A stretch of 64,000 nucleotides of DNA from an uncultured Chthonomonadaceae bacterium (GTDB lineage: Bacteria; Armatimonadota; Chthonomonadetes; Chthonomonadales; Chthonomonadaceae), in the NCBI GenBank assembly GCA_963817895.1, contig CAWFQB010000014.1, forward strand, positions 416,001 to 480,000. Reading direction: 5' to 3'. Shown piece by piece: positions 44,666 to 64,000 of this stretch. The translations under genes were made by a program, and so were the position numbers. The number at the start of each line of letters is the position of its first letter. The stretch's first letter is position 1. The notes under the pieces are model-generated. The model did no database searches and was not told where the DNA came from. It was given only the letters and a program-made list of their open reading frames with translations.

Positions 44666-47600
44666 TCAGCCAAAATAAAGGAGATCAGGCAATTTCTCCG
44701 TTAGGTTAATGAACCATTGCTCACCACGTACAGCGGTGAAATCAGAATCATTTTCTACATGCTTCTTCCCCATGTGCGGCAAACTAGGCAGCGCGAGATG
44801 CAACTCACTTCGGCATTGCTCTGCCTCACCCTTGCGGGCGTAGCAGCAGGCAAGATCATAGTGTGCGCCTGCAATTACCTGAGCGTCATACCAGGGCATT
44901 GTCAAGCACGTTTGCAGAACCTCTTGTGCCCGTTCGAGGTGGTTTAGCTGAAGTAGAATTTCGCCCCGTGTAGCATTCAAACGAACATTGCGTGGCATAC
45001 AGGCAATCTGTGCGTCGATTTCTTTGAGAGCCGATGTAAGTAGTTCCTCCTTACCCGGTTCCTGTATGTGTTGATGCCAACCATTCATTACGTTCTTGCA
45101 TGATCCGCTCGACAGCAGCTTCTGAACGGCTGCCTGTTCTCGCATCCAGCCCGAAACATACTCCGCTTGATTTGAGCGCAGACTCGCAATTGAAAGCGCA
45201 GGCGGGAAGTACCATGTTTCGGCAGCAACGCCATGTCCATTAACAATACTGCCGTTTTCCAGCCAATGATGCCGATCATGCACCCAGCCAATGCCACTGC
45301 ATATCCATTTTTCACAATCGGCGGCAGTGAAAGAAGGAGTATGCTGGAAAGCCCGGACGATATCTATTGCCACGCGATGCGATTGGCTGAGTAGATCGCT
45401 CTCAAACTCCAATGTGGGAACCTCAACCTTATCCGTGTCGCAGAAGGCGCTTAGGGTTGTGTATACGCCCTGATACTCATGCTTCAAGCGTGAAGCAGGC
45501 AGCCCGCGTATAGCTGTCAGCGCTTGATCACACACGCAGCGGCAATCTCGCAAGGACAATGCAACCGGTGAGAACATGGCGCGCAAGGTATGGCTGAGTA
45601 GAACCGCGCGCCAGTCCGTAGCGTCACATGCCCATTCCCATAATATAGGCACAGCATTCTCTTTGTTGACATGCGCGTGGAGCGTTTCCAGAATGGTTTC
45701 GGGCGCGCGGCGGATGTCCGCTTCCAGACTGCTTAACCTGGCCTCCGTCCCCAAGCTTCGGTTAGCCAGTAGTTCCGCGTAAGCAGGCGGAAGCAAGGCA
45801 GCCTCGCGCAGCGCATACAAGAACAGATCACGGTCACGAGAGATATTTCCCTCAACATTGATATGCTTCGCACAAACGTCACCAGCCTGTTCGATGATCT
45901 CCGGCGTGATACGCCTGGTGTGTACAAGCGCAGTGCAGAAACGCAACAAAGGCCAATCCGGGGGCAGTGCGGCTACAATAGCTGCGGGATTGTCCACGTA
46001 AGGCGCGCAAGCGCACAGCCAATCTGTCGCCAAGTTCGTTACCCTAAACTGCCATTCGGATGGACTTCCATCAGCAGGATGAATGTTGTATTCTGCGTCT
46101 TCTCTAGCTGTCTGGCATAACAATCTGTACCAATCTGTAAATAGTGAATGGGTGGCTATTTGACTCGCGAAGCGTCCACAAGTTTCCAGTGTCTGCACAT
46201 ACAGGAAATTATGGTTTGTTTCCAATGCGAGATGGTGAAAAATCATCGGTGCCTCGGCTGCCGCAGCGGACATGCCTCCGATGTCCAAAGCGATCCGCGC
46301 AAGAACCGCAACAGACGCACTGTAGGCAGCAAAAGCCCTGTTCTTATTTTGAATGTCCTCGTATAATGGCCCAGATAACTCTTCCAGCACACTTCTCGCA
46401 TGAGCATCATGGGGAACTTGGCTGGCGTACTGCCACCATGTGAAAGCTAACAACTCATTGAGCAAGGTTCGCGCGGAGCCGAAAGCTGTGTCAAGCCTGC
46501 CGGGGAGCATATTACCAACAAGGGCTGGACGGATACAAGCAATGTGTGCCAACAGTGTCAACGCAATGCCACACGCCCTTGTGTGCAGCATATTGCCCTT
46601 CTGTATAGCCTCAATTACAGATTCGGGATCACTTTCTGTGTAAAAGTACAGTAATCGAGACACGTCACCAACAACAGCTTGCTCCGTACCTGCCTGATGA
46701 AAGACAACTTCCTTGATATGCTCGGGGCGTCCCTCGGCGACGGGCAACAAGGCACGTGCAGCGGCTTGACGTGTCCAGAGGTTCTCATCACCAAGTTCCT
46801 GTACCAACACGGGAATGTCTGCTCCATTTCCAAACAGCGCCACGCGCCCCCGGATTGCATCAATCTCATAGCCCAAGGTTTCACGCACGTCCATGCGTTC
46901 GGGTTTGCGTGGCGACACGTAACGGCTTTGAAACCAGGCAAGAATCCAGTGTGCAGTTGCAGCAGCCTCAGCATGGCTGACAGCTTGCAAAGGCTGAAGT
47001 GCGCCACTCAGGTAACGTGCTTGCTCTCTGTTTTCGGAACTCATCATGAAGCCAGAGGGTCGCTGTAGATCGCGCCTCAGTCGCAGCAGCATTCGTCGCT
47101 TGACCCAAGAAGGAGCAATCTCCAGAGCAGCGCTCAAGGCAAATTGGCCTTTTAGAGCCTGCGTTTCTTTCTCGTCCGCATACAGTGTTCCAATCCAAGC
47201 GCGGGCGTAACTGGAATGTCCCGCCATAGCCCCCAAAGCGCGCATGGCGTTCCATGTGGAATAAGTTTCGTCACGATTAGACCAGGCGGTTAGCATAGCT
47301 GGAATACGCCAGTCGTCTCCCTGACGCTGCGCCAACCCCTGCGCCAGAGCGCTTAACCAACGAGAATCGCACTCCAGAACATGTCCAGCCCATTTCACTG
47401 CATCCGGTTCCACTGTTTCGATAGCCTGACGCACCAGTGCTGTCATTATGCCGTCGTCCAGCCCTGGCTCCATTTCAGCAAGCACATCTTCGTTCTGCGA
47501 CATGCGACCGGCCAGCCAAAGTGCCGTCAGTCGGTCGCCGAATTGTGGATTGGCATACACAACAGCACCCACCGGAGCCTTAATGTCTGCTGTGCGCGTG

Positions 47601-49786
47601 AGGATATCCTCAGATTGCAGGGCGGGCAGGACTTTCCGCCCAAATCCGGCAAGAACACCATCTATGGATTGAACAAGCTCTCCAGAGGGCTTTCCTACTC
47701 GACGGGCATGCCACATTTCAGCCGCCAGCAGCTTACTGAGATCATCAATTTCGTCTGGTTCACAGGCGGAGCGACGTGCAACTTCGTTGAAACGATATTG
47801 AGCTTCCTCATCTAACAGCACATCAACATCGACAGCTACTGGTGTTTTGACGTTGCCGCCGGAGAGATACTGGCGGATGTAAATCTTCAACAAATATGGA
47901 TTACGCAATGCTGCAAACGCGGAGTGTCGTAGTGCAAGGGCGATTTTGTCTACATCGGAAGAAGCGGGAAGCCGACATACAAGCATAGCTTGCATTTCAC
48001 TATCGGATAATCGGGTAAGTTCGTAAGAGTATAACCGAGACTTGTCCAGCTTGTTTGTCTTATCTGTATTGTCCGGCTTGTCTGTGTTATCTGTCTGTTC
48101 CGGCGTGATTACATGCCGGAACAGGTAAGGCGCAAGGCGCTTGCCCTGCGACAGTCGTTGCCAAACGCCGGATCGGACGGACAGCGCCAGCTTTATGCCT
48201 CGATGTTGCGCTTCTTGACACAGAACTTCTAGTTTATCTTCAAAGGCAGCGGGATCGCTTGAAAGTAGAACCTCATCGGCAATAAGAACAAACGTCTCAT
48301 GTAATGTATCCGACGCTATACCCTTTAGCTGCTGGAATAATTCCTCTGCCGTCGCGTCCGGACGTGTCACGCCGGATAGTGATTCACGGATTAGATCAAC
48401 CAAGGAGCGGCATTGTTCAAGTTGAGTTCCGCGTATCAGCAAGCGTACACTGTTATTGAGTCTCTCTGCGGCTTCGGCATAACATTCCCACGACTTGCCA
48501 CAGCCGCTATTGCCAATAAGGACAAACAGAGGGCGGTCACTTTTTCGGAATTCCTCAAAAGTGGCGGCAAGATCAGACCGAGAAACATACAATTCAGCCC
48601 GCCAGTCACTCGGCAGTGAGCGTTCCACCTGTTGCTGACATGCCTGAAGAGCATCATCGAGAGGAGGTTTGCGCACCATTGACGTTCCTGAATCCGAGAT
48701 GGCATTCGCTTCTTCGTTGCAGGGCAGCTCCGAAGGAGTGAAAACCTGTGTTACGGCCTCTCTTTTCACAGGCTGAATCAATTCAGGGAAAAAGTTAGGG
48801 TTTTCCAAGCAAAATCGCAACAGACTTACGGATGCGGCAGCAGCTTTTTTCTGCCAACCGTCACCTTTGCCTACACCCCAGTCGCAGATGCCTTTGGCGA
48901 ATAGAAACCATGCCTGCCCCTCTCGCTCCTTGTTGGAGTAGGAGAGCACGCTGGTTCCTAATCCATGCCCTTCCATATCCAGCCCGATAGCGTCCTTGTA
49001 TTCCGCACGGAGTTCCTCGCGTCGGTTGAAGTGATTAAGAAGTTCGTCCCCCGAAATGACCAGTCCACTATGAACACGGCAGCGGCGAGAACCGTAGTCC
49101 GCCTCGGGTGCTGTCTGCTGCCACTCTTTCGCATGTTCAAGTAAAAGATTAAGACGGTCACGGTTGGCAGCAAACCGCCCGCCTCGATTCTCAGTGCGGT
49201 CTACTTTGGTTGCCCGAAAATTATGTTGCCACAGACTGGAAGCAACCAAGATGTCACCTATTTGCTGGGTGGAGGCTGAATCATCCGTCTCAGGAGTCAT
49301 ATACTTCGGCAAGACTATCGTCTTATTTTTGGTTTTCAAGGTTGCACGAAGCAACTCCGCAATATGTAATGGCAGTTCGCTCTGGTTGCTCGGGCTGAAG
49401 TACTTTTCTAATTCTTCGCAGGCAATGGTGGTTTTATCAGAGGCGCTTCTTTTAAGGCCACACGCGATGCCAGGCATAAGTACATAAAAGGATTGTGAAC
49501 CACCAGTCCCTCGCAGTTCTGCGAGTGCAGCAGTGATCTCTGTCGCTGCATTCATACCAGCCTGTCCGCACATCAAATGAGCCGCCAGGTACTTGCCGAA
49601 GTAACCGAAGCGGTACTGCTGGTAAAGTGGAATTATCTCCTCTACGAATGGTTCAGCGTCAAGTACCACGTTGACGGCATCTGCCTCTACCTGCATGGCC
49701 GTTACAATTAGAACGTTGACCCTCTGCCTCAGTTCGTCAAACTCTTTTTTGCTGATTGATCGAGTCATTGTGCTTGTCCCTGACAA
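44666..49786 (-). CDS. Nucleoside phosphorylase (PNP/MTA-SAH nucleosidase) effector + STAND NTPase + helical/TPR sensor; Avs-like putative antiphage protein
   Basis: VLIVTAMQVE, MPGIACG, IGDILVA, SGDELL, LDMEGHG, KGICDW; Walker A GNSGCGKS, Walker B FVLIADE; C-terminal HYDLACCYA...DSDF..VR TPR end. Confidence 0.8.
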   Translation of the reverse strand: MSGTSTMTRSISKKEFDELRQRVNVLIVTAMQVEADAVNVVLDAEPFVEEIIPLYQQYRFGYFGKYLAAHLMCGQAGMNAATEITAALAELRGTGGSQSFYVLMPGIACGLKRSASDKTTIACEELEKYFSPSNQSELPLHIAELLRATLKTKNKTIVLPKYMTPETDDSASTQQIGDILVASSLWQHNFRATKVDRTENRGGRFAANRDRLNLLLEHAKEWQQTAPEADYGSRRCRVHSGLVISGDELLNHFNRREELRAEYKDAIGLDMEGHGLGTSVLSYSNKEREGQAWFLFAKGICDWGVGKGDGWQKKAAAASVSLLRFCLENPNFFPELIQPVKREAVTQVFTPSELPCNEEANAISDSGTSMVRKPPLDDALQACQQQVERSLPSDWRAELYVSRSDLAATFEEFRKSDRPLFVLIGNSGCGKSWECYAEAAERLNNSVRLLIRGTQLEQCRSLVDLIRESLSGVTRPDATAEELFQQLKGIASDTLHETFVLIADEVLLSSDPAAFEDKLEVLCQEAQHRGIKLALSVRSGVWQRLSQGKRLAPYLFRHVITPEQTDNTDKPDNTDKTNKLDKSRLYSYELTRLSDSEMQAMLVCRLPASSDVDKIALALRHSAFAALRNPYLLKIYIRQYLSGGNVKTPVAVDVDVLLDEEAQYRFNEVARRSACEPDEIDDLSKLLAAEMWHARRVGKPSGELVQSIDGVLAGFGRKVLPALQSEDILTRTADIKAPVGAVVYANPQFGDRLTALWLAGRMSQNEDVLAEMEPGLDDGIMTALVRQAIETVEPDAVKWAGHVLECDSRWLSALAQGLAQRQGDDWRIPAMLTAWSNRDETYSTWNAMRALGAMAGHSSYARAWIGTLYADEKETQALKGQFALSAALEIAPSWVKRRMLLRLRRDLQRPSGFMMSSENREQARYLSGALQPLQAVSHAEAAATAHWILAWFQSRYVSPRKPERMDVRETLGYEIDAIRGRVALFGNGADIPVLVQELGDENLWTRQAAARALLPVAEGRPEHIKEVVFHQAGTEQAVVGDVSRLLYFYTESDPESVIEAIQKGNMLHTRACGIALTLLAHIACIRPALVGNMLPGRLDTAFGSARTLLNELLAFTWWQYASQVPHDAHARSVLEELSGPLYEDIQNKNRAFAAYSASVAVLARIALDIGGMSAAAAEAPMIFHHLALETNHNFLYVQTLETCGRFASQIATHSLFTDWYRLLCQTAREDAEYNIHPADGSPSEWQFRVTNLATDWLCACAPYVDNPAAIVAALPPDWPLLRFCTALVHTRRITPEIIEQAGDVCAKHINVEGNISRDRDLFLYALREAALLPPAYAELLANRSLGTEARLSSLEADIRRAPETILETLHAHVNKENAVPILWEWACDATDWRAVLLSHTLRAMFSPVALSLRDCRCVCDQALTAIRGLPASRLKHEYQGVYTTLSAFCDTDKVEVPTLEFESDLLSQSHRVAIDIVRAFQHTPSFTAADCEKWICSGIGWVHDRHHWLENGSIVNGHGVAAETWYFPPALSIASLRSNQAEYVSGWMREQAAVQKLLSSGSCKNVMNGWHQHIQEPGKEELLTSALKEIDAQIACMPRNVRLNATRGEILLQLNHLERAQEVLQTCLTMPWYDAQVIAGAHYDLACCYARKGEAEQCRSELHLALPSLPHMGKKHVENDSDFTAVRGEQWFINLTEKLPDLLYFG

Positions 49787-49862: not shown

Positions 49863-50501
49863 TCAGTCCTTCGATTTTGCAATGTCCCGTAACAGTTTTA
49901 TGCGCGTATCCATCCGTTCTCGAAGGTCGTCGAACGTCATACAGCTCACTTTGTTCGCGTTGATGGAAACCTTCTGCGTACGCCAATGAAGCCGTTCTCG
50001 CATTGTATTGTCAAGGTATTTACTTCGCCCAATGAGCAGCAATCCTGAAAAACTGTGCAGTTCGCCGCCAAAGCGCTTGCGGAAATCAATGTTGCCCCGG
50101 TACATATCAAGCGCCCAAAACCAGTCTATTAATTGTGAGTAGCCGTGTTCAAAGCGGCGTCCCCACTCATCATGGTATTTGTCCCCACTGCCGAAAACGC
50201 TATAACGACGCGCATCTTCTATTTCCACCAGTACGAATTCGCCACTCTGCGAATGCCCCGCCGCCCAATCGCAGCGGAAGTTGCCGAAGAGATCAAGTTC
50301 AAACCCGAACAAATCTATCTCCTCGATACGCAGGTTCCAGGAGGCGGCAAATGTGGCAAGATGAGGCCGTGACCCAAAGAAAGGCAACAGGTCGTTCTTT
50401 TCCGAAAGTTCATCCTTGCTGTCCAGAAGCGCGCCGAATTCTGCAAGTTCCTGCTCGCACTGGTCAAGCGAAAACTGAAACTTCGAGAGTTCCTTGCTCA
50501 T
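49863..50501 (-). CDS. Shedu (SduA/DUF4263) nuclease-domain protein
   Basis: FRCDW, FVLVEIED, GYSQLIDW, LLIGR, MTFDDL. Confidence 0.75.
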   Translation of the reverse strand: MSKELSKFQFSLDQCEQELAEFGALLDSKDELSEKNDLLPFFGSRPHLATFAASWNLRIEEIDLFGFELDLFGNFRCDWAAGHSQSGEFVLVEIEDARRYSVFGSGDKYHDEWGRRFEHGYSQLIDWFWALDMYRGNIDFRKRFGGELHSFSGLLLIGRSKYLDNTMRERLHWRTQKVSINANKVSCMTFDDLRERMDTRIKLLRDIAKSKD

Positions 50502-50770
50502 CCATATCTCTCAGCGAAGCGCCTGTTGAGTATGTCCAGGACAGTGATACTGTCTTGACCAACAGTAAACGCTACCAGCAAATCATTTCCAGTCCGAAGC
50601 ACATATGTGGGGTTCTCCTCCGTTATGTCCTTAAGTCGGGCAATGTTGGGGTCCGACAACCCACATTCGGCCAGCATGTGAATGCGGGTGAGTACGCGAT
50701 TGCGCTCTTCTGAATCCAGAGAACTGAGCGCATCTTCAGCTTGTGGATAATAGTGTATGGAATATGACAT
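50498..50770 (-). CDS. RelE/ParE-fold small protein
   Basis: YSIHYYPQAEDALSSL...YVLRTG.DL.VAF...ITVLDIL.R; ATGA overlap with the Shedu gene. Confidence 0.6.
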   Translation of the reverse strand: MSYSIHYYPQAEDALSSLDSEERNRVLTRIHMLAECGLSDPNIARLKDITEENPTYVLRTGNDLLVAFTVGQDSITVLDILNRRFAERYG

Positions 50771-50845
50771 TGTTTTACTTTCCAAGAACGTTCCCTGCCC
50801 TCGATTCATTATACCATTTCGGGCAGAGAGGTTTGTTCACATCCT

Positions 50846-53514: not shown

Positions 53515-53904
53515 TTAGCCCTCAATCCTCACCGCGGAATACCCGTTTCTCAACGTTAAAAACCACGTATGACGGCGAAGTTCCGCCTGTTCCGTAAACT
53601 GTACGCCGCACTCGTACCAGGTTATGCCCGCTTCTTCCACAAGATGCTGCCGCACAATGCGCGCCCTTCCTACCCGCAACGCCGTATCGTGTGGCGGATG
53701 AATCAGGATTTCGCTGCCGCAGGGCATGCATACAGCCATGCGCAGTTTCAATCCCTTGCGGCTGATGTCCACGCAGGGACATTCGTAAATTCCCATCTGT
53801 GGATGTTCCACTCTCAATGTTTTGGCAATGCACTTCTGGCGCAATGCGTCGCGCCGATCATCATCCAATGCGTTGATTATATCTTTTTCGGCTGTAAGCG
53901 TCAT
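53515..53904 (-). CDS. PilZ domain c-di-GMP receptor
   Basis: RRDALR (RxxxR) and DISRKG (DxSxxG); start overlaps the upstream subtilase stop (TAATG). Confidence 0.85.
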   Translation of the reverse strand: MTLTAEKDIINALDDDRRDALRQKCIAKTLRVEHPQMGIYECPCVDISRKGLKLRMAVCMPCGSEILIHPPHDTALRVGRARIVRQHLVEEAGITWYECGVQFTEQAELRRHTWFLTLRNGYSAVRIEG

Positions 53905-55793
53905 TATTTTTCTCCTTGAATCACTTTGGTAGATAGGTCAGATTGCGTTGTCGTAACGCCCCACACGGCCCGGTCACTCCAGACATTCGTTCCCCACAGG
54001 GCGCGGTTGGCGTTCAGTTGGTTGGTACTCACGCCCCAGATGGCGCGCGTTCCCCAGATAGCGCGAAGATGGGTGACATCCGTTCCCCAGATCGCCCGCG
54101 TTCCCCACAGGGCGCGATCCATGTTGATCGTCACATTGCCCTGATCGTCAATGGTAAGCGAGGGCGACAGCGCGGGCTGCGTGGGGACAATCCGGCTGTT
54201 CAGAGCAGCGGGTATATTGAGAAATCCGGCCCCGTAGGTGCAGGGGTTGCCCATTCCCGTCGCGTCTGCCCACTTGTCGGCGGAAAACATCAGCCGCGCT
54301 TTCACGGTATCGGGCGTCAGCGCGGGGCTTGCCTGTAACATCAGGGCGATAGCCCCGCTGACAACCGGCGTCGCCATCGAGGTTCCCGACAGGCGGATAT
54401 AGTCTCTGGAGGCTGAACTGTTTCCGTTCTTGACGTACTCGCTGTTCAGCACATTGGTTTGCGCGTTGAAGTTGAGGTCAAGGTACGAGCCGGGAACGTT
54501 CAGCGAGACGATGTGGTTTCCGGGCGCGACAATATCGGGCTTGAGCGTCAAGTCCAATCGGGACGGGCCGCGACTGGAATACGTCGCCACCGCGTCATGC
54601 GGATGCTGTCCGTCTACAGATTTCATCGCGCCAACAGTAATCACATAAGGATCGTTGCCGGGGCTGTCAATGGAGCCATAAGCCGCGCCGTAGCCTTCGT
54701 TGTCCGGCACGGGCGGGTTGGGCATGGCGTCGTTTACGCGGCCATCGTTGCCTGCCGCGCAGACCACTACGATACCGGCCTGCCATGCCGCTTCCACCGC
54801 CTGGCAGAGCGGATCGTTCGCGGCAGCATCCCCAACAGGATGCCCCATAGATAGGTTCAGAACCCTGATATTGTAGGGATTGTTGTTCTTGACGCTGTTG
54901 ACTACCCATGTAATGCCCGCGACCACTGTGCTTACGTCGCTCTGCCCGTTTGCATTCAGGACGCGCACGTTTATCAGGGACGCTTTCGGCGCGATGCCGT
55001 AGTAGTTCTGCGTATTAGCGGCGCTGCTCGATTGGGCCGCATTGCCCGCGATAATGCCCGCGACATGGGTTCCATGCCCGCATCTATCGTCGCCGGAGCC
55101 TGTAGGCGCGATTAAATCATGATCCGTGAGCCATGTTTGAAGACTGGGGCGCGGCCCGACTGCAGGCGCAGGGTCATTACTCGCGTCCACAAAGTTGACG
55201 CTGACGGCCACGCGGTCGCCCAACGCGGTCAGCTTACCTTTGAGGCCGGGTATGTACTTGCATACATCCGGGTGCTGTTCATGGATGCCGCTGTCCAGAA
55301 TCGCCACGCCAATATTCGTTCCATCCAGTTTGTAAGGCGCGGCCCACGCCGCTGCGGTTCCCGTCGAACCGGTTGTAAACCCGTCGTATTTACGCACGAT
55401 GGCGTTGGACGACAGATGCTTCACAAACGGAAGCGCGGACAGTTTGTTCAGCGCCGAATTGGGAATGCGTACCGTTACCGAGTGTATCAGCGGCAATCGG
55501 CTTTGAATGGACGCGCCACAGGCTTTCAATTGCGCTTCCCGATCGGGAGTGCAGTCGCCATCTATTCTCACAATTACAGAGGACCAATCATTCGCCGTCC
55601 TTGCTGTCAGCGCGTTCGCCAGAAAGCTGTCCGTCTTCGGACCGGTCTTGTCGGCGCGAACCGATTGCCCCATTCCAATCAGCAGCAGGGCTACTGTCGC
55701 GCCTCCCCCAAAAAAGCGACCTGCATTATATTTTCCAGGGCGGTTTTCACGCCATTTTGTCACAAACTTCTGATACTTCTTCATACCGGTCAT
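53904..55793 (-). CDS. Secreted S8 subtilase with C-terminal RA[LIV]WG repeats
   Basis: AILDSG, HGTHVAG, AAGN, GTSMATP; signal peptide and propeptide. Confidence 0.92.
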   Translation of the reverse strand: MTGMKKYQKFVTKWRENRPGKYNAGRFFGGGATVALLLIGMGQSVRADKTGPKTDSFLANALTARTANDWSSVIVRIDGDCTPDREAQLKACGASIQSRLPLIHSVTVRIPNSALNKLSALPFVKHLSSNAIVRKYDGFTTGSTGTAAAWAAPYKLDGTNIGVAILDSGIHEQHPDVCKYIPGLKGKLTALGDRVAVSVNFVDASNDPAPAVGPRPSLQTWLTDHDLIAPTGSGDDRCGHGTHVAGIIAGNAAQSSSAANTQNYYGIAPKASLINVRVLNANGQSDVSTVVAGITWVVNSVKNNNPYNIRVLNLSMGHPVGDAAANDPLCQAVEAAWQAGIVVVCAAGNDGRVNDAMPNPPVPDNEGYGAAYGSIDSPGNDPYVITVGAMKSVDGQHPHDAVATYSSRGPSRLDLTLKPDIVAPGNHIVSLNVPGSYLDLNFNAQTNVLNSEYVKNGNSSASRDYIRLSGTSMATPVVSGAIALMLQASPALTPDTVKARLMFSADKWADATGMGNPCTYGAGFLNIPAALNSRIVPTQPALSPSLTIDDQGNVTINMDRALWGTRAIWGTDVTHLRAIWGTRAIWGVSTNQLNANRALWGTNVWSDRAVWGVTTTQSDLSTKVIQGEK

Positions 55794-55820
55794 AACCTCA
55801 CTCTTTCGCCTGATAGTAAC

Positions 55821-55909
55821 TTCCGCTTTGAAGTCGCCGGAATGGAGGCAGAGCGAACCTCTACAAGGTTATGCCCGGTTTGCGCGTGTTTTCGACCAGT
55901 TATAATTGC
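55821..55909 (-). promoter_or_regulatory. Conserved structured leader and promoter-like box upstream of subtilase 1
   Basis: Aligns with 58082-58169, with compensatory changes in the stem. Confidence 0.6.
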
Positions 55910-55953
55910 GGGATAATGTAAAGACGAGAAACGTAATTACTGAACAAGCATAT

Positions 55954-55997
55954 CTATCCGGTAAGCCGCCTAAAGTTACAGGCGGCTTACCGGATAG
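55954..55997. terminator. Strong hairpin between the two subtilase genes
   Basis: CTATCCGGTAAGCCGCCT-8 nt-AGGCGGCTTACCGGATAG. Confidence 0.7.
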
Positions 55998-56106
55998 TTA
56001 TCTCTACTCAGCTATATTCCCCACACTATGCGCCCACAAACGAGAGTTTTGTAATCCGGCCCTCTTGACAGGGTGCGACCGGGACACGTCTGCTGGTTAA
56101 CCATCA

Positions 56107-58047
56107 TCATTTTTCTCCTTGAACCACTTTGTTACTTAAATCGGCCTGGGTCGCCGATGTGCCCCACATTGCCCGATCACACCAGACAGTGGTTCCCCAC
56201 ATCGCTCGGCTGGCATTAAGAATGTTCGCGCTGGTTCCCCACATCGCCCGCGTGCCCCACATCGCTCGCAGGTCTGTAATGTCCGTTCCCCACATTGCGC
56301 GCGATCCCCACAACGCGCGATCCATGTTGATGGTCACGTTCCCCTGACTATCCTGCGACAGGGAGGGCGACATCGCCGGTTGCCGGGCGACAATCTGACT
56401 GCTCAACGCGGCGGGGATATTGAGATAACCCGCCCCGTATGTGCAGGGATCGCCGTTTCCCTGCGCATCCGCCCATTTATCCGCCGCAAACATCAGGCGG
56501 GCTTTGATGGTGTCCGGCGAAAGGGTTGGATTGGCTTGCAGCATCAACGCCACTGCGCCACTCACAACCGGCGTCGCCATAGAGGTGCCCGACAGACGGG
56601 CATAGGAAGTGGAGGGCTGACTGTCGCCATTCCAGATGTACTCGTTGTGCAGCACATCAATCTGCGCCCCGTAGTTGAGATCAAAGTACGAATTCACCAC
56701 GTTCAGCGAAACAATACGGTTGCCGGGCGCGGCAATGTCGGGCTTGAGAGTCAGGTCCAGGCGCGTCGGACCCCGACTGGAATAGGTGGCTGCCCGGTCA
56801 TGCTGACGCATGCCGTCCACCTGCTTCATCGCGCCGACCGTAATCACATACGGATCGTTGCCGGGGCAGGCAATGGAACCATACGCGGTTCCGTAGCCCT
56901 CATTATCGGGGCAGGGCGGCGCAGGCAGATTGTCGTTGAGACGGCCATCATTGCCCGCTGCGCAGACCACGACCAGACCTGCCTTATAGGCCGCTTCCAC
57001 CGCCTGACAGAGGGGGTCATTGGTATAATAGTCGCCCACGGGATGCCCCACAGACAGGTTCACCACGCGAATGTTGTAAGGATTTTTGTTCTTGACGCTG
57101 TTGACGACCCACTGAATACCCGCAATAACCGTACTCACGTCGCTCTGCCCGTAGGCGTTTAACACACGCACGTTCACCAGCGAAGCCGCAGGAGCGATAC
57201 CGGCAAAGGAGTGCGTGTTGAACAACCCGACGGACATTGTCGCATTTCCGGCCACAATGCCTGCGACGTGCGTACCGTGTCCGCATTGGTCGTCCGCATG
57301 ACCATCCGGGGTACTCTTGTCGTAGTCGGAATTCCACGGCGGCGGAGCAAATTGGCCTGCAACCGGCGCCGGATCCTTGTCCTTTTTATCAGACTTGCCG
57401 GGAAGCAACGCTAAAATTCCCTTTTTGGCTGCCGGATCGTTGTGAGTGTCCACAAAGTTGACGCCTATGAGAACGCGGTTTCCTTTTACTTTTATTTTGC
57501 CGTTGGAATCGACAAGGTACTGGCACATGTCAGGATGATCCTGGCTAATTCCGCTGTCGAGGACGGCCACGCCGACGTTGACGCCGGACAGGTAATTGGG
57601 TGCGCCCCACGCCTGCCACGCCCCACTCGCGCCCACTGTGTACTCGTCGGTTTTTTTCACGGTAAGGTCCGAAGAGAGATGCCGTACCCAGGACAATTCC
57701 GCCAGTTGCTGTAACGCGCTGTTCGGGACGCGCACGGAGATAGACTGGATGAGCGGCAGCTGCACTGTCACAACTGCGCCCAACGCCTTCAACTGCGCTT
57801 CTCTGATGGGCGTATACTCGCCGTCTACTCTTATGATTACCGCCGACACGCCCGCCTGCCGCTTTGCAGCCAACACGCGCGAAAGAAACAGATCAGTTTT
57901 TGTCGTGGCTGCATCCGCCCGCGCAAACTGCGTCTGGCCGGCAAACAGCAGGGCTGCCGCAGCGCAAGCCGCAATTCCATTTACTGCTCTATGTTGCTTA
58001 TGGCCGTCAGTTCGGCCCGACTTCTCGCATTTGATATTTTTGTTCAT
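56107..58047 (-). CDS. Secreted S8 subtilase with C-terminal RA[LM]WG repeats (paralogue)
   Basis: AVLDSG, HGTHVAG, AAGN, GTSMATP. Confidence 0.92.
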   Translation of the reverse strand: MNKNIKCEKSGRTDGHKQHRAVNGIAACAAAALLFAGQTQFARADAATTKTDLFLSRVLAAKRQAGVSAVIIRVDGEYTPIREAQLKALGAVVTVQLPLIQSISVRVPNSALQQLAELSWVRHLSSDLTVKKTDEYTVGASGAWQAWGAPNYLSGVNVGVAVLDSGISQDHPDMCQYLVDSNGKIKVKGNRVLIGVNFVDTHNDPAAKKGILALLPGKSDKKDKDPAPVAGQFAPPPWNSDYDKSTPDGHADDQCGHGTHVAGIVAGNATMSVGLFNTHSFAGIAPAASLVNVRVLNAYGQSDVSTVIAGIQWVVNSVKNKNPYNIRVVNLSVGHPVGDYYTNDPLCQAVEAAYKAGLVVVCAAGNDGRLNDNLPAPPCPDNEGYGTAYGSIACPGNDPYVITVGAMKQVDGMRQHDRAATYSSRGPTRLDLTLKPDIAAPGNRIVSLNVVNSYFDLNYGAQIDVLHNEYIWNGDSQPSTSYARLSGTSMATPVVSGAVALMLQANPTLSPDTIKARLMFAADKWADAQGNGDPCTYGAGYLNIPAALSSQIVARQPAMSPSLSQDSQGNVTINMDRALWGSRAMWGTDITDLRAMWGTRAMWGTSANILNASRAMWGTTVWCDRAMWGTSATQADLSNKVVQGEK

Positions 58048-58081
58048 ACCGTTTATAGCCTCATCCTCAGCTTTATTTAAA

Positions 58082-58169
58082 TTCCGCTTTGAATCACTGG
58101 AATTGAGGTACAGCGGACCTCAATAAGGGTATGCCCTGTATACTGACAGATTCCGTCTATTACAATTGC
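58082..58169 (-). promoter_or_regulatory. Conserved structured leader and promoter-like box upstream of subtilase 2
   Basis: Second copy of the 55821-55909 motif. Confidence 0.6.
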
Positions 58170-58189
58170 CTGATTCTTCTTGCCTGATT

Positions 58190-60691
58190 CTACGCCGCTT
58201 TCGCTTCCGGCCAAACAGTGATTTGAAGAGATACTTCCGGCTCCTGAATTTCGAGGCATTTTTCGCTGTTCTTTTCGCGACCCGCAAGTTTGCCTAATTT
58301 GCGCTCGGTCTTCTGGTGGTACATCTGCGTATCGGCGGCGGAAAGGAGGGTGGCGCAGTCTTCGCCATCGTGGGGAAAACACGCGACGCCAATACTCACG
58401 CCCAGATGCAGCGCTCCCAACTTGGGATGAATCAAATCCGGGTCGTAGGCTTCCACGGCCTGCTGTATTTTCTGCGCGAGCGCGGTCGCTTCCGCCCTTT
58501 CGCCGCCCTCGACCACAATCAGAAACTCGTCGCCGCCGTACCGAGCCACAATGTCGCCTGTCCCGACGTTCATGCGGAACAGATGCGCCAGTTCGCCCAG
58601 CACCTGATCGCCTTTCTGGTGGCCGAAATTGTCATTGATCGGCTTGAAACTGTCCAGGTCGAGGCACAGGAGGGCGAAGCCCGCGCGTTCGGGACGGCGG
58701 CACTTCTCCTCCACCATCTGCGTCAGATAGCGGATGTTGTACGCGCCCGTCAGAGGATCGGTGAACGCATGGCCGCGTGTACGGTCGAACAGCAAGCCGT
58801 TGTACAGCGCCATCGCCGCCCGCTCCGCAATGGTTTCCAGCAGTTGCTTGTCGTGGACGCTGAATGCTTCGGTTTCCGGCGAGTACAGATTGATGGTTCC
58901 CAGAACTTCGCCCTGATGCACGATGCTGACAATCAGCGCGGACTCGAATGTCACCCACTGCGCCGACTGCGAACTGGTCAGCAGTAGATCATCCTGATCG
59001 TACTGTCCCACATACGTGGTCCGTGTGGCGGCGACCTGCGCGGATGTGCAGCGCGGATTCAGGGAGCGCGCAGTGACAAGAAAATCGCGGTTCAATCCCA
59101 CTGCCGCCCGCGCGCTCAGGGTCTCTTCGCCCTCCTCTTTGAGCAGGAACACGCACGCGCCGCCGGGGAAAATCGCTTCCAGTTTGCGGGCCAGAATATC
59201 AATCGTCTCCTGCAATCCCAGACTGGAGGACAGGGTCTGCGCCACTTCGTACAGCGCCCACAGCTCCGAACTCGCCCGCTGAATATCGCGGGCCGCCCCC
59301 TCCATTTTCGACTTCGGATTCTCGATTTTAGAGGGCGCGGGTACAAGAGGGCCTTCTCCCTGCTCCGCCATTTCGTGAACCACGCGGTCAATCACCAGTA
59401 CGAACGCATCCACAATGACCGGGTCGAAGTGCGTTCCCGCGTCTTTGATAATCACCGAAAGGGCGCGTTCATGCGTCCACGCCGTCCGGTACGAGCGGGA
59501 ACTTGTCAGCGCGTCGTACACATCGGCAACCGCCAGAATACGCGCCGTGAGGGGAATATCCAGGCCCGCCAGACCCTCCGGGTAGCCGGTTCCGTCCCAC
59601 TTCTCATGGTGGTACTTCACAGCGGGCAGAACGGGCCAGGGGAACTCGACCGGGTCCAGAATCGCCGCGCCGATTTCAGGATGCTTCTTGATTTTTTCGA
59701 ATTCTTCGTCCGTCAAACGCCCTGGTTTGAGCAGCACGTATTCGGGAACGCCCAATTTGCCGATGTCGTGTAGCAGCGCGCCGGTATTCACGCCCTCCAG
59801 TTCCGCGCCGGTCAGTCCCATCTGCACGGCAATGGCGACCGCGTACCGCTGTACCCGCAGAATGTGCTGATGCGTGTACTGGTCCTTGGCGTCAATGGCG
59901 AGGGCGAGGCTTTTAATTGTCGCTAAATACAGATCCGCAAGATGCGCCTGATTGCGCTGAAGCTCTTCGATATGCTGTAGTTTCTCCTCCTGCCGCCCAA
60001 TGTACGTGCCGTAAGATTGGTAGGTGAGATAGGCGACGGGCGACACGAACAACAAAATCGCGACCAGGTGCTGCCCGAACAACACCAACGCAAGCGTGCT
60101 GATACACGCCCCGGCAAAATAACTGGGGGCTGTCCACAGAAACGTCTGTTTCCACAAGGTAAACGGAGGCTCTTTGGTACACAGCGCGATAATCAGGGCC
60201 ACGCCGCCTGTGTTGATGACGAAATTCATCAACGCCGCGCCGATGACGGCCATGAAGGTTTCTACGGGTCGCATTTGCAGCGTGCCGCCGTTCAGCCACA
60301 AAAACACCAGTCCCGCCAGCCAGCCCTCCAGTATCCCCAGGCAGGAGTTGAAAGCCAGTTGGTAGAGGGGCTGCCGTTTGGGATACAGGCCACCGGAGAT
60401 GCAGGTAATCATCGCCGTCATCGCGCCAGCTCCCGGCCCGAAGTGCAGCATGGCGGCGAACGTAATGGCAAACCCAAGCGACATGGAACCGGCGTCATCC
60501 TCTTGTTTATGGCGCATCAGGCAGATTTTCTTGCCGCCCGCCAATACAGCGATTATCAGGAAAACGACCAATTCCCATGCCTGCGTTTTACTGGTAGGCA
60601 TAGCCGTCGTGCAGGCGTAAACCGCGGCGACAAGACCGAGCAGGCAAACTGTTAGCAAGTACAATTGCGCCGGCTTTGGCAAACTACGCAT
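58190..60691 (-). CDS. Membrane-sensor HD-GYP + GAF + GGDEF c-di-GMP turnover protein
   Basis: About 7 N-terminal TM helices; HDIGK, HHEKWDGTGYP; GAF (GTINLY); TDPLTG, DLDSFK.IND.FGH, RYGGDEF. Confidence 0.92.
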   Translation of the reverse strand: MRSLPKPAQLYLLTVCLLGLVAAVYACTTAMPTSKTQAWELVVFLIIAVLAGGKKICLMRHKQEDDAGSMSLGFAITFAAMLHFGPGAGAMTAMITCISGGLYPKRQPLYQLAFNSCLGILEGWLAGLVFLWLNGGTLQMRPVETFMAVIGAALMNFVINTGGVALIIALCTKEPPFTLWKQTFLWTAPSYFAGACISTLALVLFGQHLVAILLFVSPVAYLTYQSYGTYIGRQEEKLQHIEELQRNQAHLADLYLATIKSLALAIDAKDQYTHQHILRVQRYAVAIAVQMGLTGAELEGVNTGALLHDIGKLGVPEYVLLKPGRLTDEEFEKIKKHPEIGAAILDPVEFPWPVLPAVKYHHEKWDGTGYPEGLAGLDIPLTARILAVADVYDALTSSRSYRTAWTHERALSVIIKDAGTHFDPVIVDAFVLVIDRVVHEMAEQGEGPLVPAPSKIENPKSKMEGAARDIQRASSELWALYEVAQTLSSSLGLQETIDILARKLEAIFPGGACVFLLKEEGEETLSARAAVGLNRDFLVTARSLNPRCTSAQVAATRTTYVGQYDQDDLLLTSSQSAQWVTFESALIVSIVHQGEVLGTINLYSPETEAFSVHDKQLLETIAERAAMALYNGLLFDRTRGHAFTDPLTGAYNIRYLTQMVEEKCRRPERAGFALLCLDLDSFKPINDNFGHQKGDQVLGELAHLFRMNVGTGDIVARYGGDEFLIVVEGGERAEATALAQKIQQAVEAYDPDLIHPKLGALHLGVSIGVACFPHDGEDCATLLSAADTQMYHQKTERKLGKLAGREKNSEKCLEIQEPEVSLQITVWPEAKAA

Positions 60692-60996: not shown

Positions 60997-61839
60997 ATGT
61001 TGTCTAAACATAACCAAAATACCAGCATCGCTCAACGCTCAACGCTCAACGCTTTCACTTTGATTGAGTTGCTCGTTGTGATCGCCATTATCGGCATTCT
61101 GGCTGCGATCCTATTTCCGGTCTTTGCCCAGGCGCGAGAGTCGGCGCGGGCCACCGCCTGCCTGTCCAACACCAAACAGCTCGGCCTGGCCCTGACGCTT
61201 TATGCGCAGGACTATGACGAGGGGCTTATCGCCTGGCGCAACTGCCCGGCTCACGATGCAACCGGCGTGACGCAGTGTTCGCTTGCCGACCAGACCGCAT
61301 CCCTGTGGACCAATACCCTTCAGCCGTATATCAAGAGCCAGCAGATTTTAAAGTGTCCCTCGTATGTGGCGGAAAACACCGCGCAGGCGATGGACGCGGA
61401 CGATTGCGATGGCGCGGGCGCGTCGCCTAACGTGTTTCCCCCGGACACGGTGTTCGCCAACTATGGCCTGTCCTACCCGGCAACCTACTATCCGGGCTGT
61501 GACACAACCGGCAACATGGCTTACGCTCATTACGCGGGCAGCGGATGGATGACCGATACAAACGGCAACTACGTTTTCTCCGCCCAATCGCTGACGAATG
61601 TAGTCGCGCCCGCCCGTACCGCGATGGTGGTAGACGCGCTCACATTCCAGAAGCACGACGGCAGCGGCCCGTATTTAGGCATTCTGTACGGCTGCGAGGG
61701 ACGCTTCCGGCACAGGGGCGGAGCCAATCTGACTTTTCTGGACGGCCATTCCAAATGGATCACCAACAACCCGGAACGCCATCTGGAACAGGACGCATCC
61801 GGCTGCTACTACGAGCGCTACTTCACCTCGGATAAGTAG
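60997..61839 (+). CDS. DUF1559 prepilin-type N-terminal cleavage/methylation protein with H-X9-DG C-terminal motif
   Basis: [54 protein letters not shown]. Confidence 0.92.
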
Positions 61840-61945: not shown

Positions 61946-62113
61946 GTAGGGGCGCTGCTTGCTGCGCCCAAAACGACGAATTGCTGCGCCCAAAACGACG
62001 AATTGCTGCGCCCAAAACGACGAATTGCTGCGCCCTCTGGAAGCGGTTGCTGCGCCTTTGTTCGAGGAGGGTTCAACCAATGTTGAGGAGGGTTCAGCAA
62101 GCAGAACCCCTAC
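61946..62113. repeat. REP doublet (REPIN-like) with internal 22-bp tandem repeat
   Basis: GTAGGGGCGCTGCTTGCTGCGCCC on + and GTAGGGGTTCTGCTTGCTGAACCC on -; (GCTGCGCCCAAAACGACGAATT)x3 in between. Confidence 0.75.
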
Positions 62114-62489: not shown

Positions 62490-64000
62490 ATGAGAACACC
62501 AACCACCAACCACCAACCACCAACCACCACTTTCGACCCCGTTCAGGTGGAAGTATGGCGGCACTTGCTGGCGGCAGTGGCCGAAGAGATGGGCGTCACG
62601 CTGGAACGAACAGCCTACTCCCCCAACATCAAGGAGCGTCTGGACCATAGCTGCGCCCTGTTCGACGCGGAGGGACGATTACTCGCGCAGGCGGCCCACA
62701 TTCCCGTACATCTCGGCGCAATGCCCCTGATGATTCAATCCCTGCGTTCCCGACTCGACTGGCAGCCTGGCAGCATGTGGCTGTGCAACGATCCCCGTTG
62801 CGGCGGAACCCATTTGCCGGATATTACGCTGATTGCGCCCGTGTTTGTAAAGGATGAAGGCGGAAGGATGAAGGATGAGGGGAAAATACGAGATACAAGA
62901 TACGAGATACGAGAAGAAGAGAATTCATCCTTCATGCTTCATCCTTCATCCTTGCTTGGCTTCGTCGCCAGCCGCGCCCATCATGCCGATGTGGGGGGAT
63001 TGTCGCCCGGTTCGCTGCCGCTTTCTACGGAAGCCTTTCACGAGGGAATTATCATTCCGCCGCTGTTGTTGGTAGAAAATGGGCAGGTGCGGCAGGACGC
63101 TCTGGAACTGGTTTGCGCCAATTCACGGACGCCGGGGGAGCGGCGGGGCGACCTGTCGGCGCAAATCGCCGCCAATGAGACGGGCATACGGAGGTTTCGC
63201 GCTCTGATGGAAGCGCATGGCGCGGAAACATTCGGGCTGCGCGTGGGCGAAAACATCGCGTATGCCGCGCAAGCCGTTCGCGCCGCCATTCAAACCCTGC
63301 CGCCGGGAGTTTATGAGGCCGAGGATGTTCTGGACGATGACGGCGCGGGCAGCACAGACATTCTGATTCGCGTTAAAATGACCGTGCAGGCAAACGGCGG
63401 CATCTGCTTTGATTTCACGGGCAGCGCCAGTCAGGTGCGCGGTTCGCTCAACGCCACTCTCGCCATTACCCGTTCCGCCTGCTACTACGTCGTCCGCTGT
63501 CTTGTCGAGGAAGAAATCCCCACGAATGAGGGCTGTTTCGCGCCCGTCGAAGTGATTGCGCCACCGGGAAGCATCGTCAACGCGCGTTTTCCGGCTGCGG
63601 TGGCGGCGGGAAATGTCGAGACTTCGCAGCGCATTGTGGATGTGCTGTTGCGGGCATTAGCGCAGGCCGCGCCTGAACGTATTCCCGCCGCCAGTCAAGG
63701 CACGATGAACAACCTGACCATCGGCGGGTGGGACGCGGAGCGGCAACAGCCGTTCGCGTATTACGAAACAATTGCGGGCGGCGCGGGCGCGTCCCCTTTC
63801 GGAGCGGGCATGTCGGGCATCCACACCCACATGACCAACACGCGCAATACGCCGGTCGAAGCCTTTGAAACCCATTATCCCATGCGCGTGGAAGCCTACG
63901 CGCTTGCAGAGGGGACAGGCGGCGAAGGCGAACACGCGGGCGGCATGGGAATCATACGCCAAATCCGTCTGCTCACGGATTGCCGCGTGTCGCTGCTGAC
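62490..64000 (+). CDS. Hydantoinase B/5-oxoprolinase family protein; runs off the right edge
   Basis: Translated by hand: DPVQVEV...AEEMGVTLERTAYSPNIKERLDHSCALFD, HIPVHLG, NDP..GGTHLPD, RAHHADVGG, ASQGTMNN, YYETIAGG, HMTNTRNTPVE. Confidence 0.92.
   Translation, partial: MRTPTTNHQPPTTTFDPVQVEVWRHLLAAVAEEMGVTLERTAYSPNIKERLDHSCALFDAEGRLLAQAAHIPVHLGAMPLMIQSLRSRLDWQPGSMWLCNDPRCGGTHLPDITLIAPVFVKDEGGRMKDEGKIRDTRYEIREEENSSFMLHPSSLLGFVASRAHHADVGGLSPGSLPLSTEAFHEGIIIPPLLLVENGQVRQDALELVCANSRTPGERRGDLSAQIAANETGIRRFRALMEAHGAETFGLRVGENIAYAAQAVRAAIQTLPPGVYEAEDVLDDDGAGSTDILIRVKMTVQANGGICFDFTGSASQVRGSLNATLAITRSACYYVVRCLVEEEIPTNEGCFAPVEVIAPPGSIVNARFPAAVAAGNVETSQRIVDVLLRALAQAAPERIPAASQGTMNNLTIGGWDAERQQPFAYYETIAGGAGASPFGAGMSGIHTHMTNTRNTPVEAFETHYPMRVEAYALAEGTGGEGEHAGGMGIIRQIRLLTDCRVSLL

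Follow-up and report, generated by a model that had tools for sequence, protein, structure and literature searches.

In peptide quorum-sensing systems such as agr, ComX/ComP, Phr/Rap and SHP/Rgg, an exported precursor undergoes proteolytic maturation to a short variable peptide, which is recognized by a cognate receptor, with likely auto-regulation. Membrane sensors whose architecture is MASE9–HD-GYP–GAF–GGDEF have also been described, and MASE9 has been proposed to bind a ligand within the membrane, not named in the available text of that study (Galperin and Chou, bioRxiv 10.1101/2021.11.05.467447). For the MASE9 protein HdgA, no linked protease is mentioned in the available part of its description (PMC6205966). 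The S-component fold found in energy-coupling factor (ECF) transporters has been linked to the 5TMR receptors, with the ligand in the central cavity, and the word “MASE” is absent from the main text of the respective paper (Partipilo and Slotboom, 2024, PMC11109136). Here we analyze positions 53515–60691 of a 64,000-nt stretch (the window) of contig CAWFQB010000014.1 from an uncultured Chthonomonadaceae bacterium, where a MASE9-type sensor is encoded together with two subtilases carrying repeat tails and a PilZ protein. Since a residue predicted to lie in the pocket of the sensor varies together with the repeat motif in two bacterial phyla, this sensor family, for which no ligand is known, probably reads the repeats as a peptide signal.

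The initial annotation described four co-oriented genes with intact motifs, and the ends of the open reading frames (ORFs), Pfam matches, catalytic triads, six-copy tails and PilZ motifs were all confirmed; the genes and their parts are on the minus strand. The sensor (58190–60691, 833 aa) comprises a MASE9-type membrane domain, HD-GYP, GAF and GGDEF, the latter three matching Pfam HD_5, GAF and GGDEF. Its HD motif at residue 308, HHExxDGxGYP at 361 and GGDEF at 719, with TIGR00254 over the cut-off, suggest catalytic activity. HD and HHExxDGxGYP are both present in 84 of 90 full-length homologues, while the inhibitory RxxD site of GGDEF, found in 64 of 86 homologues, is absent from the window sensor. 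Both subtilases, S8a (56107–58047, 646 aa; triad D164/H257/S489) and S8b (53904–55793, 629 aa; triad D167/H240/S472, 62% identical to S8a), match Peptidase_S8 (PF00082) over the cut-off with the Asp/His/Ser triad in order, and by family membership should be capable of proteolysis and self-maturation; S8a starts with a signal-like segment and a predicted prodomain. Each protease ends with a tail containing six R-x-x-W-G copies: one RALWG and five RAMWG with the spacing 6, 11, 6, 14, 11 in S8a (residues 577–629, 56161–56319), and three RAIWG, two RALWG and one RAVWG in S8b (residues 560–612, 53958–54116).

The window sensor resembles the published MASE9 sensors in its architecture and in the eight predicted helices with a short hairpin. 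It misses the Pfam model, however, and lies beside proteases; the words “protease” and “peptidase” are absent from the main text of Galperin and Chou. The pairing of a tail protease with MASE9 was not found in the literature searched (subscription journals and the supplements of 10.1101/2021.11.05.467447 and PMC11109136 being outside its scope). As regards the initial remark that no characterization of such a module was known, the sensor architecture itself had been published (10.1101/2021.11.05.467447).

Conservation of the protease–sensor pair

The conserved unit is smaller than the four genes, and consists of a signal-peptide S8 protease with a repeat tail and a MASE9-type membrane sensor. 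Two profiles, one for the membrane domain and one for the C-terminal 116 positions of the protease, were used to search an identical set of 401 Armatimonadota genomes. The membrane domain was found in 128 genomes, the tail in 84, and both in 83, that is, 83 of the 84 tail genomes have the sensor domain; among the matches listed, every genome with a best membrane-domain E-value of 1e-50 or lower (71 of 71) also has the tail. Close homologues of the sensor come from Chthonomonadaceae, Chthonomonadales and Capsulimonadaceae. The loci examined were 18 from the search for relatives and the best 100 of 125 further listed ones, ranked by E-value, with L140 included out of this order, as the tail profile had shown a tail beside it. 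An S8 gene lies within 6 kb in 77 of 117 loci with the full membrane domain, many contigs ending sooner, and 68 of these could be typed by repeat; with two to three proteases of this kind per 5 Mb, simple arithmetic yields a chance expectation of about 1/100.

The same pairing is seen in a second phylum. A DNA pattern for three W-G repeats, run over GTDB genomes, gave at least 124 stretches, 80 of them with flanks, mostly Acidobacteriota by title; among these 80 listed stretches, S8 was found in 68, and S8 with the membrane domain in 32. Hence, the linkage of S8 proteins having xxWG tails with the transmembrane sensor, initially suggested as a check, is conserved in Armatimonadota and Acidobacteriota. 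A search for Arg-type repeats over 401 Acidobacteriota genomes was discarded, its 10 matches being mostly of the Ser type because the codon pattern for Arg repeats also admits Ser.

An S8 gene also adjoins membrane domains that carry SpoIIE (6 loci scanned), a histidine kinase, HD-GYP alone, or PAS-PAS-LuxR (L411) as their output, and therefore the unit under selection is the tail plus the membrane domain, with cyclic di-GMP (c-di-GMP) being the commonest output rather than the defining one. The initial picture of a closed writer–eraser–reader locus is accordingly weaker than the core idea of a tail sensed by the membrane domain. The stand-alone PilZ protein (53515–53904, 129 aa) is an accessory, present in 5 of 117 sensor loci. 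It matches PF07238 with 25 bits (cut-off 22.5), and its R18xxxR22 and D46xSxxG51, corresponding to the RxxxR and DxSxxG binding motifs of PilZ, suggest binding of c-di-GMP. The stop codon of S8b and the start codon of PilZ share one base (TAATG), and PilZ adjoins the sensor in four relatives, once without a protease nearby, as would be expected if the four genes formed a self-contained operon with PilZ as the dedicated reader of the sensor. We consider such an operon highly improbable, given the rarity of PilZ, its varying position, and a strong hairpin and separate upstream motifs splitting the region. The proposed translational coupling of PilZ to the last protease retains the one-base overlap in the window, but this overlap is lost in all four relatives having PilZ of this kind. 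A single transcript spanning all four genes is improbable, because an 18-pair hairpin (55954–55997, strand undefined; likely a terminator or an RNA-stabilizing element) separates the proteases, and each protease has its own copy of the upstream motif GCAAT-N27-30-GGCATA(A/C)C, likely a promoter or a regulator site (minus strand, 58128–58169 before S8a and 55868–55909 before S8b).

Several variants of the module were observed. At L411 (7546–11819), an RLLWG protease overlaps the start of the MASE9-PAS-PAS-LuxR protein with E118; judged by its domains, this protein represents the module in the form of a membrane-bound one-component transcription factor. In loci of the Acidobacteriota type (L141:4232–4966, L187:8161–8886, L279:2222–2941, and others), Ser-type WG proteases are directly followed by MASE9 proteins that stand alone, with a length of about 240 aa and no output domain; these could be decoys, partners or importers. 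In one Acidobacteriota genome (L200–L202, L403, L404), NIVWG and RVIWG repeats alternate along a tandem array of at least five proteases, and two of its five sensors have E118. In L048 (12031–14583) and other loci of the f29 family, a GAF-PAS-GGDEF-HD-GYP gene (one scanned) is often divergent from the sensor.

Co-variation of the repeat and the membrane domain

Across the family, the repeat has the form X-x-hydrophobic-W-G, with X being mostly R, N, Q, H or S. The window pairs RAxWG repeats with Glu122 in helix 4 (codon 60326–60328, minus strand), the position that co-varies with Arg/Lys as the first repeat residue. In the discovery set of 68 pairs, an acidic residue at 122 is present in 29 of 30 Arg/Lys pairs vs. 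6 of 38 others; Gln repeats occur with N119 in 10 of 12 pairs and with F156 in 11 of 12, and Asn repeats, with Y156 in all 18. Among 30 Acidobacteriota pairs, none of the 29 non-basic ones has an acid at 122, and the single Arg pair (L196) carries its Glu one turn away, at 118. The 118/122 rule was then fixed, and the four Arg pairs found afterwards (L276, L290, L320, L411) all carry Glu at one of these two positions. In a separate clade of the Acidobacteriota type, two sensors beside Ser or Gln repeats (L282 and L408) carry Ala118, and the Arg-type sensors, E118. Judged from spacing alone, positions 115, 118/119 and 122, as well as 156 and 160, would fall on single helical faces.

Overall, Glu/Asp at 118 or 122 is found in 34 of 35 Arg/Lys pairs and in 8 of 80 others. 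The held-out pairs, including L196, show an acid in 5/5 Arg/Lys vs. 1/42 others, where some rows are stand-alone membrane domains, and the nearest protease was used in loci with several. Clustering at 60% identity leaves 17/18 vs. 8/53. The Pagel test on a tree built without columns 118/122 gives a likelihood ratio of 42.5 (4 degrees of freedom, p about 1e-8), although this and other p-values are overstated, since position 122 is a choice among some 240 columns, and 118 joined the rule once L196 had been seen. None of 4595 tree simulations reached the observed phi of 0.83, and the pair of 118/122 with Arg/Lys ranks first among 2133 combinations of column pairs and residue classes. The trend extends to single-sensor genomes having no typed protease within 6 kb (16 of 18 typable), with an acid in 7/8 Arg/Lys cases vs. 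3/8 others. This co-variation of the first repeat residue with the sensor is new here.

Several features of these data, along with the choice of positions just mentioned, weigh against the tail being read by the sensor. The independent-pairs test is not significant, with 3 and 4 pairs on strongly supported branches of star-like trees. The best raw mutual information is 0.67 in a cytoplasmic control domain vs. 0.70 in the membrane domain, with 0.59 at position 122; as this measure failed to separate the two domains, the tree-based and held-out tests were added. T229/233 reaches phi 0.71, which together with the control domain means that shared descent does produce strong correlations. Exceptions are L140 (Arg, no acid), G121 (Lys, no acid) and the eight non-basic pairs with an acid. 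The Asn/Y156 rule is looser in Acidobacteriota (10/19), the Gln/F156 rule holds there in one of two cases, and 45 of 128 genomes with a membrane-domain match, the weaker ones, have no tail match.

The lack of significant independent pairs could be explained by an arrangement that we regard as improbable, namely, a c-di-GMP-regulated exoprotease residing beside a c-di-GMP enzyme, with a structural tail, a sensor reading an unrelated small molecule, and inherited co-variation. Yet the linkage persists with outputs other than c-di-GMP, co-occurrence holds for unlinked genes too, and the separate clade with Arg repeats has its acid at a different position (118). The initial suggestion that the tail is sensed by the membrane domain has passed two computational checks proposed with it, namely, linkage, conserved in two phyla, and co-variation of the repeat with the sensor. 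As in peptide quorum sensing, the presumptive precursor and receptor are genetically linked and co-varying, with the stated reservation about independent pairs.

Predicted structures and the proposed signal

The membrane domain (residues 1–241, 59969–60691, minus strand) has eight predicted helices including a short two-helix hairpin, and shares conserved aromatic and Asn/Ser positions with MASE9: N115 and W180 are invariant in the alignment, and S71, F114, N160, F184 and W186 are conserved at >=90%. The window protein has no match to Pfam MASE9 (PF20972); of 81 aligned relatives, 60 reach E<=0.01 with this model and some exceed its cut-off, and three match ECF_trnsprt (PF12822). The AlphaFold2 model of the domain has a predicted local distance difference test score (pLDDT) of 80.8. 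In the VIA structure comparison, the NikM-type structure 4m5c scores Z 14.1 (root-mean-square deviation 3.5, 181 aligned residues), other S-components have Z of 10–13, and all top 15 rows are S-components or related vitamin or metal binders. Foldseek with the same model yields RibU and FolT as best rows, with the best E-value of 2.9e-3, none being at E<=0.001, and no sequence of a solved structure matches the membrane-domain profile. The model thus predicts an S-component fold with a central cavity, whose six-helix core appears superposable on RibU, FolT, ThiT, BioY and NikM/CbiM. As in the S-components and 5TMR-LYT kinases, the predicted core and cavity would be accompanied by an extra N-terminal helix and fused to signalling outputs.

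The modelled domain differs from S-components by one more C-terminal helix and by loops L1, L3 and L5 being rich in Lys/Arg (on average 4.1, 1.9 and 2.1 vs. 0.7, 0.7 and 0.4 in L2, L4 and L6), as well as by a peptide as the proposed ligand. Based on the helix count and these loop counts, the domain is likely inverted relative to S-components, so that what is usually the pocket mouth would face the cytoplasm; the outward opening of S-components, where L1, L3 and L5 are extracellular, is not reproduced by the predicted topology. A peptide would therefore reach the pocket either from the periplasmic side, by way of the helix bundle, or after import. This geometry counts against a released peptide as the ligand, since the pocket-side loops are predicted to be cytoplasmic, whereas the protease is exported, and so does the failure to recognize a recurrent peptide importer near the loci (clusters of ORFs >=120 aa, judged from N-terminal sequence); no recurrent modifying enzyme was recognized there either. 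S-component folds usually bind small molecules according to the available text of PMC11109136, which suits a sensor of an unrelated small molecule as well.

The copy number of repeats in 156 proteases varies from 3 to 18 with the median of 7, the commonest period is 6 (559 gaps), and some tails are pure tandem copies right to the stop codon. A hydrophobic signal-like segment precedes the prodomain in 68 of 69 full-length S8 proteins. In the AlphaFold2 model of the protease, the prodomain and the catalytic core have high confidence, with pLDDT of about 90 for the core, and the tail is mostly below 60. The closest solved relative, Tk-SP (PDB 3afg, E 2e-32), is similar in the S8A prodomain, the triad and the presence of a C-terminal extension, but in the window this extension is a low-confidence repeat tail having no match among solved structures. 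The tails were not reported by Tandem Repeats Finder at the DNA level. A structural tail could take the form of a hexapeptide-like beta-solenoid, an amyloid-like strand or a surface anchor, none of which we find probable: period 6 is what a hexapeptide beta-helix would have, and one Atlas look-alike cluster with Hexapep on 16% of its members provides a lead only, while the spacing in the window tail is irregular, its pLDDT is low, and the model contains no confident solenoid. On the other side, the tail has a positional scaffold, with spacer words that stay fixed and a conserved DL...GE end, as could be expected of a folded element, which leaves room for a structural role.

With these points weighed, we assign a probability of roughly 0.6 to the reading in which a peptide released from the tail is the ligand of the MASE9-type sensor. 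The protease would be exported, as suggested by the signal-like segment, and its prodomain removed as in other subtilases. The tail, predicted to be disordered, would then be cut, likely by the protease itself, to near-identical short peptides. Such a peptide could bind in the S-component-like cavity, with the constant W-G end near N115, N160 and W180, and, as the co-variation suggests, with its Arg placed at E122, which is two turns of the helix away from N115. Binding would shift the balance between HD-GYP and GGDEF, changing c-di-GMP levels in a direction that may be either up or down, and c-di-GMP would in turn feed back on protease expression. In this scheme the peptide may also act between cells.

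Linkage and co-variation would be equally well accounted for by a sensor recognizing the intact or partly trimmed tail, and thus monitoring export, maturation or the precursor pool of the cell's own protease rather than a diffusible signal. The conserved scaffold of the tail fits this version, and a cytoplasm-facing pocket could meet the C-terminal tail of the precursor before or during export. Nevertheless, we consider it rather unlikely: up to 18 copies and pure tandem tails reaching the stop codon better suit a multi-copy precursor, and arrays in which Arg and Asn repeats alternate over as many as five proteases, beside several sensor types, suggest several channels.

Regulation, genomic context and implications

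In 8 of 15 relative loci scanned, c-di-GMP-I riboswitches, often in tandem, are located just upstream of the protease, which suggests c-di-GMP feedback on its expression; such control of proteases would equally be expected with a structural tail. By Rfam at the gathering score, no riboswitch was found in the window or in two paralogous loci, and the three c-di-GMP-I-GGC matches of the same genome lie outside this locus; here PilZ or the upstream motif may stand in for it. A relaxed E-value Rfam match to the hairpin, a weak one to a microRNA model, was rejected. The upstream motif occurs 6 times in the genome vs. once for the reversed control, and its GGCATAAC part recurs before S8 genes in five relative loci of the same family. 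The motif is one base short of the sigma-54 spacing, and a scan for sigma-70 promoters yielded counts at the chance level.

The same genome has another sensor with this type of membrane domain. Interrupted by a frameshift (L001:9662–12365), it is positioned head to head with an S8 protease having NFGWG repeats; a third S8 protease, with RAIWG-type repeats, is alone on another contig. In a genome of the same genus, the sensor and S8 are frameshift-split as well (L023:5798–10454); these frameshifts may reflect assembly error or decay. Divergent from the window sensor is a prepilin-type DUF1559 gene (60997–61839, plus strand); such genes are found near 15 loci and are apparently common in the phylum. 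Further away, a lower-GC stretch on the minus strand with a short Shedu SduA_C protein (49863–50501), a 1706-aa protein with weak STAND/AAA matches (44666–49786) and a 103-aa ORF having no Pfam match (50498–50809) looks like a small defence island. Repeats are present at 61959–62035, 62497–62529 and 62850–62953, namely, one of 22 bases, perfect and in 3.5 copies, and several 7-base tandem ones, some of them inside a hydantoinase B/oxoprolinase ORF as an in-frame insertion-like stretch.

By analogy with agr, ComX/ComP, Phr/Rap and SHP/Rgg, the proposed module would combine an exported precursor, maturation and matching of peptide and receptor, differing from them in that the protease's own multi-copy tail would serve as the precursor, an S-component-like domain as the receptor, and c-di-GMP as the main output, with Armatimonadota and Acidobacteriota as hosts. 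A broader interpretation, which we offer tentatively, is that this is an undescribed and widespread class of pheromones, with the protease tail as a multi-copy signal, an inverted MASE9 receptor, auto-induction via riboswitches, orthogonal channels, and a residue code in which Arg/Lys is read by Glu/Asp at 118/122, Gln by Asn119 and Phe156, and Asn by Tyr156.

No ligand is known for MASE9, and the literature searched contained no case of peptide signalling into c-di-GMP in these abundant soil phyla. The co-variation names both a peptide (RAMWG with short extensions) and a residue (E122), and thus makes the ligand question directly testable. If true, the proposed reading would extend the S-component fold to peptide reception and provide a set of orthogonal peptide–receptor pairs.

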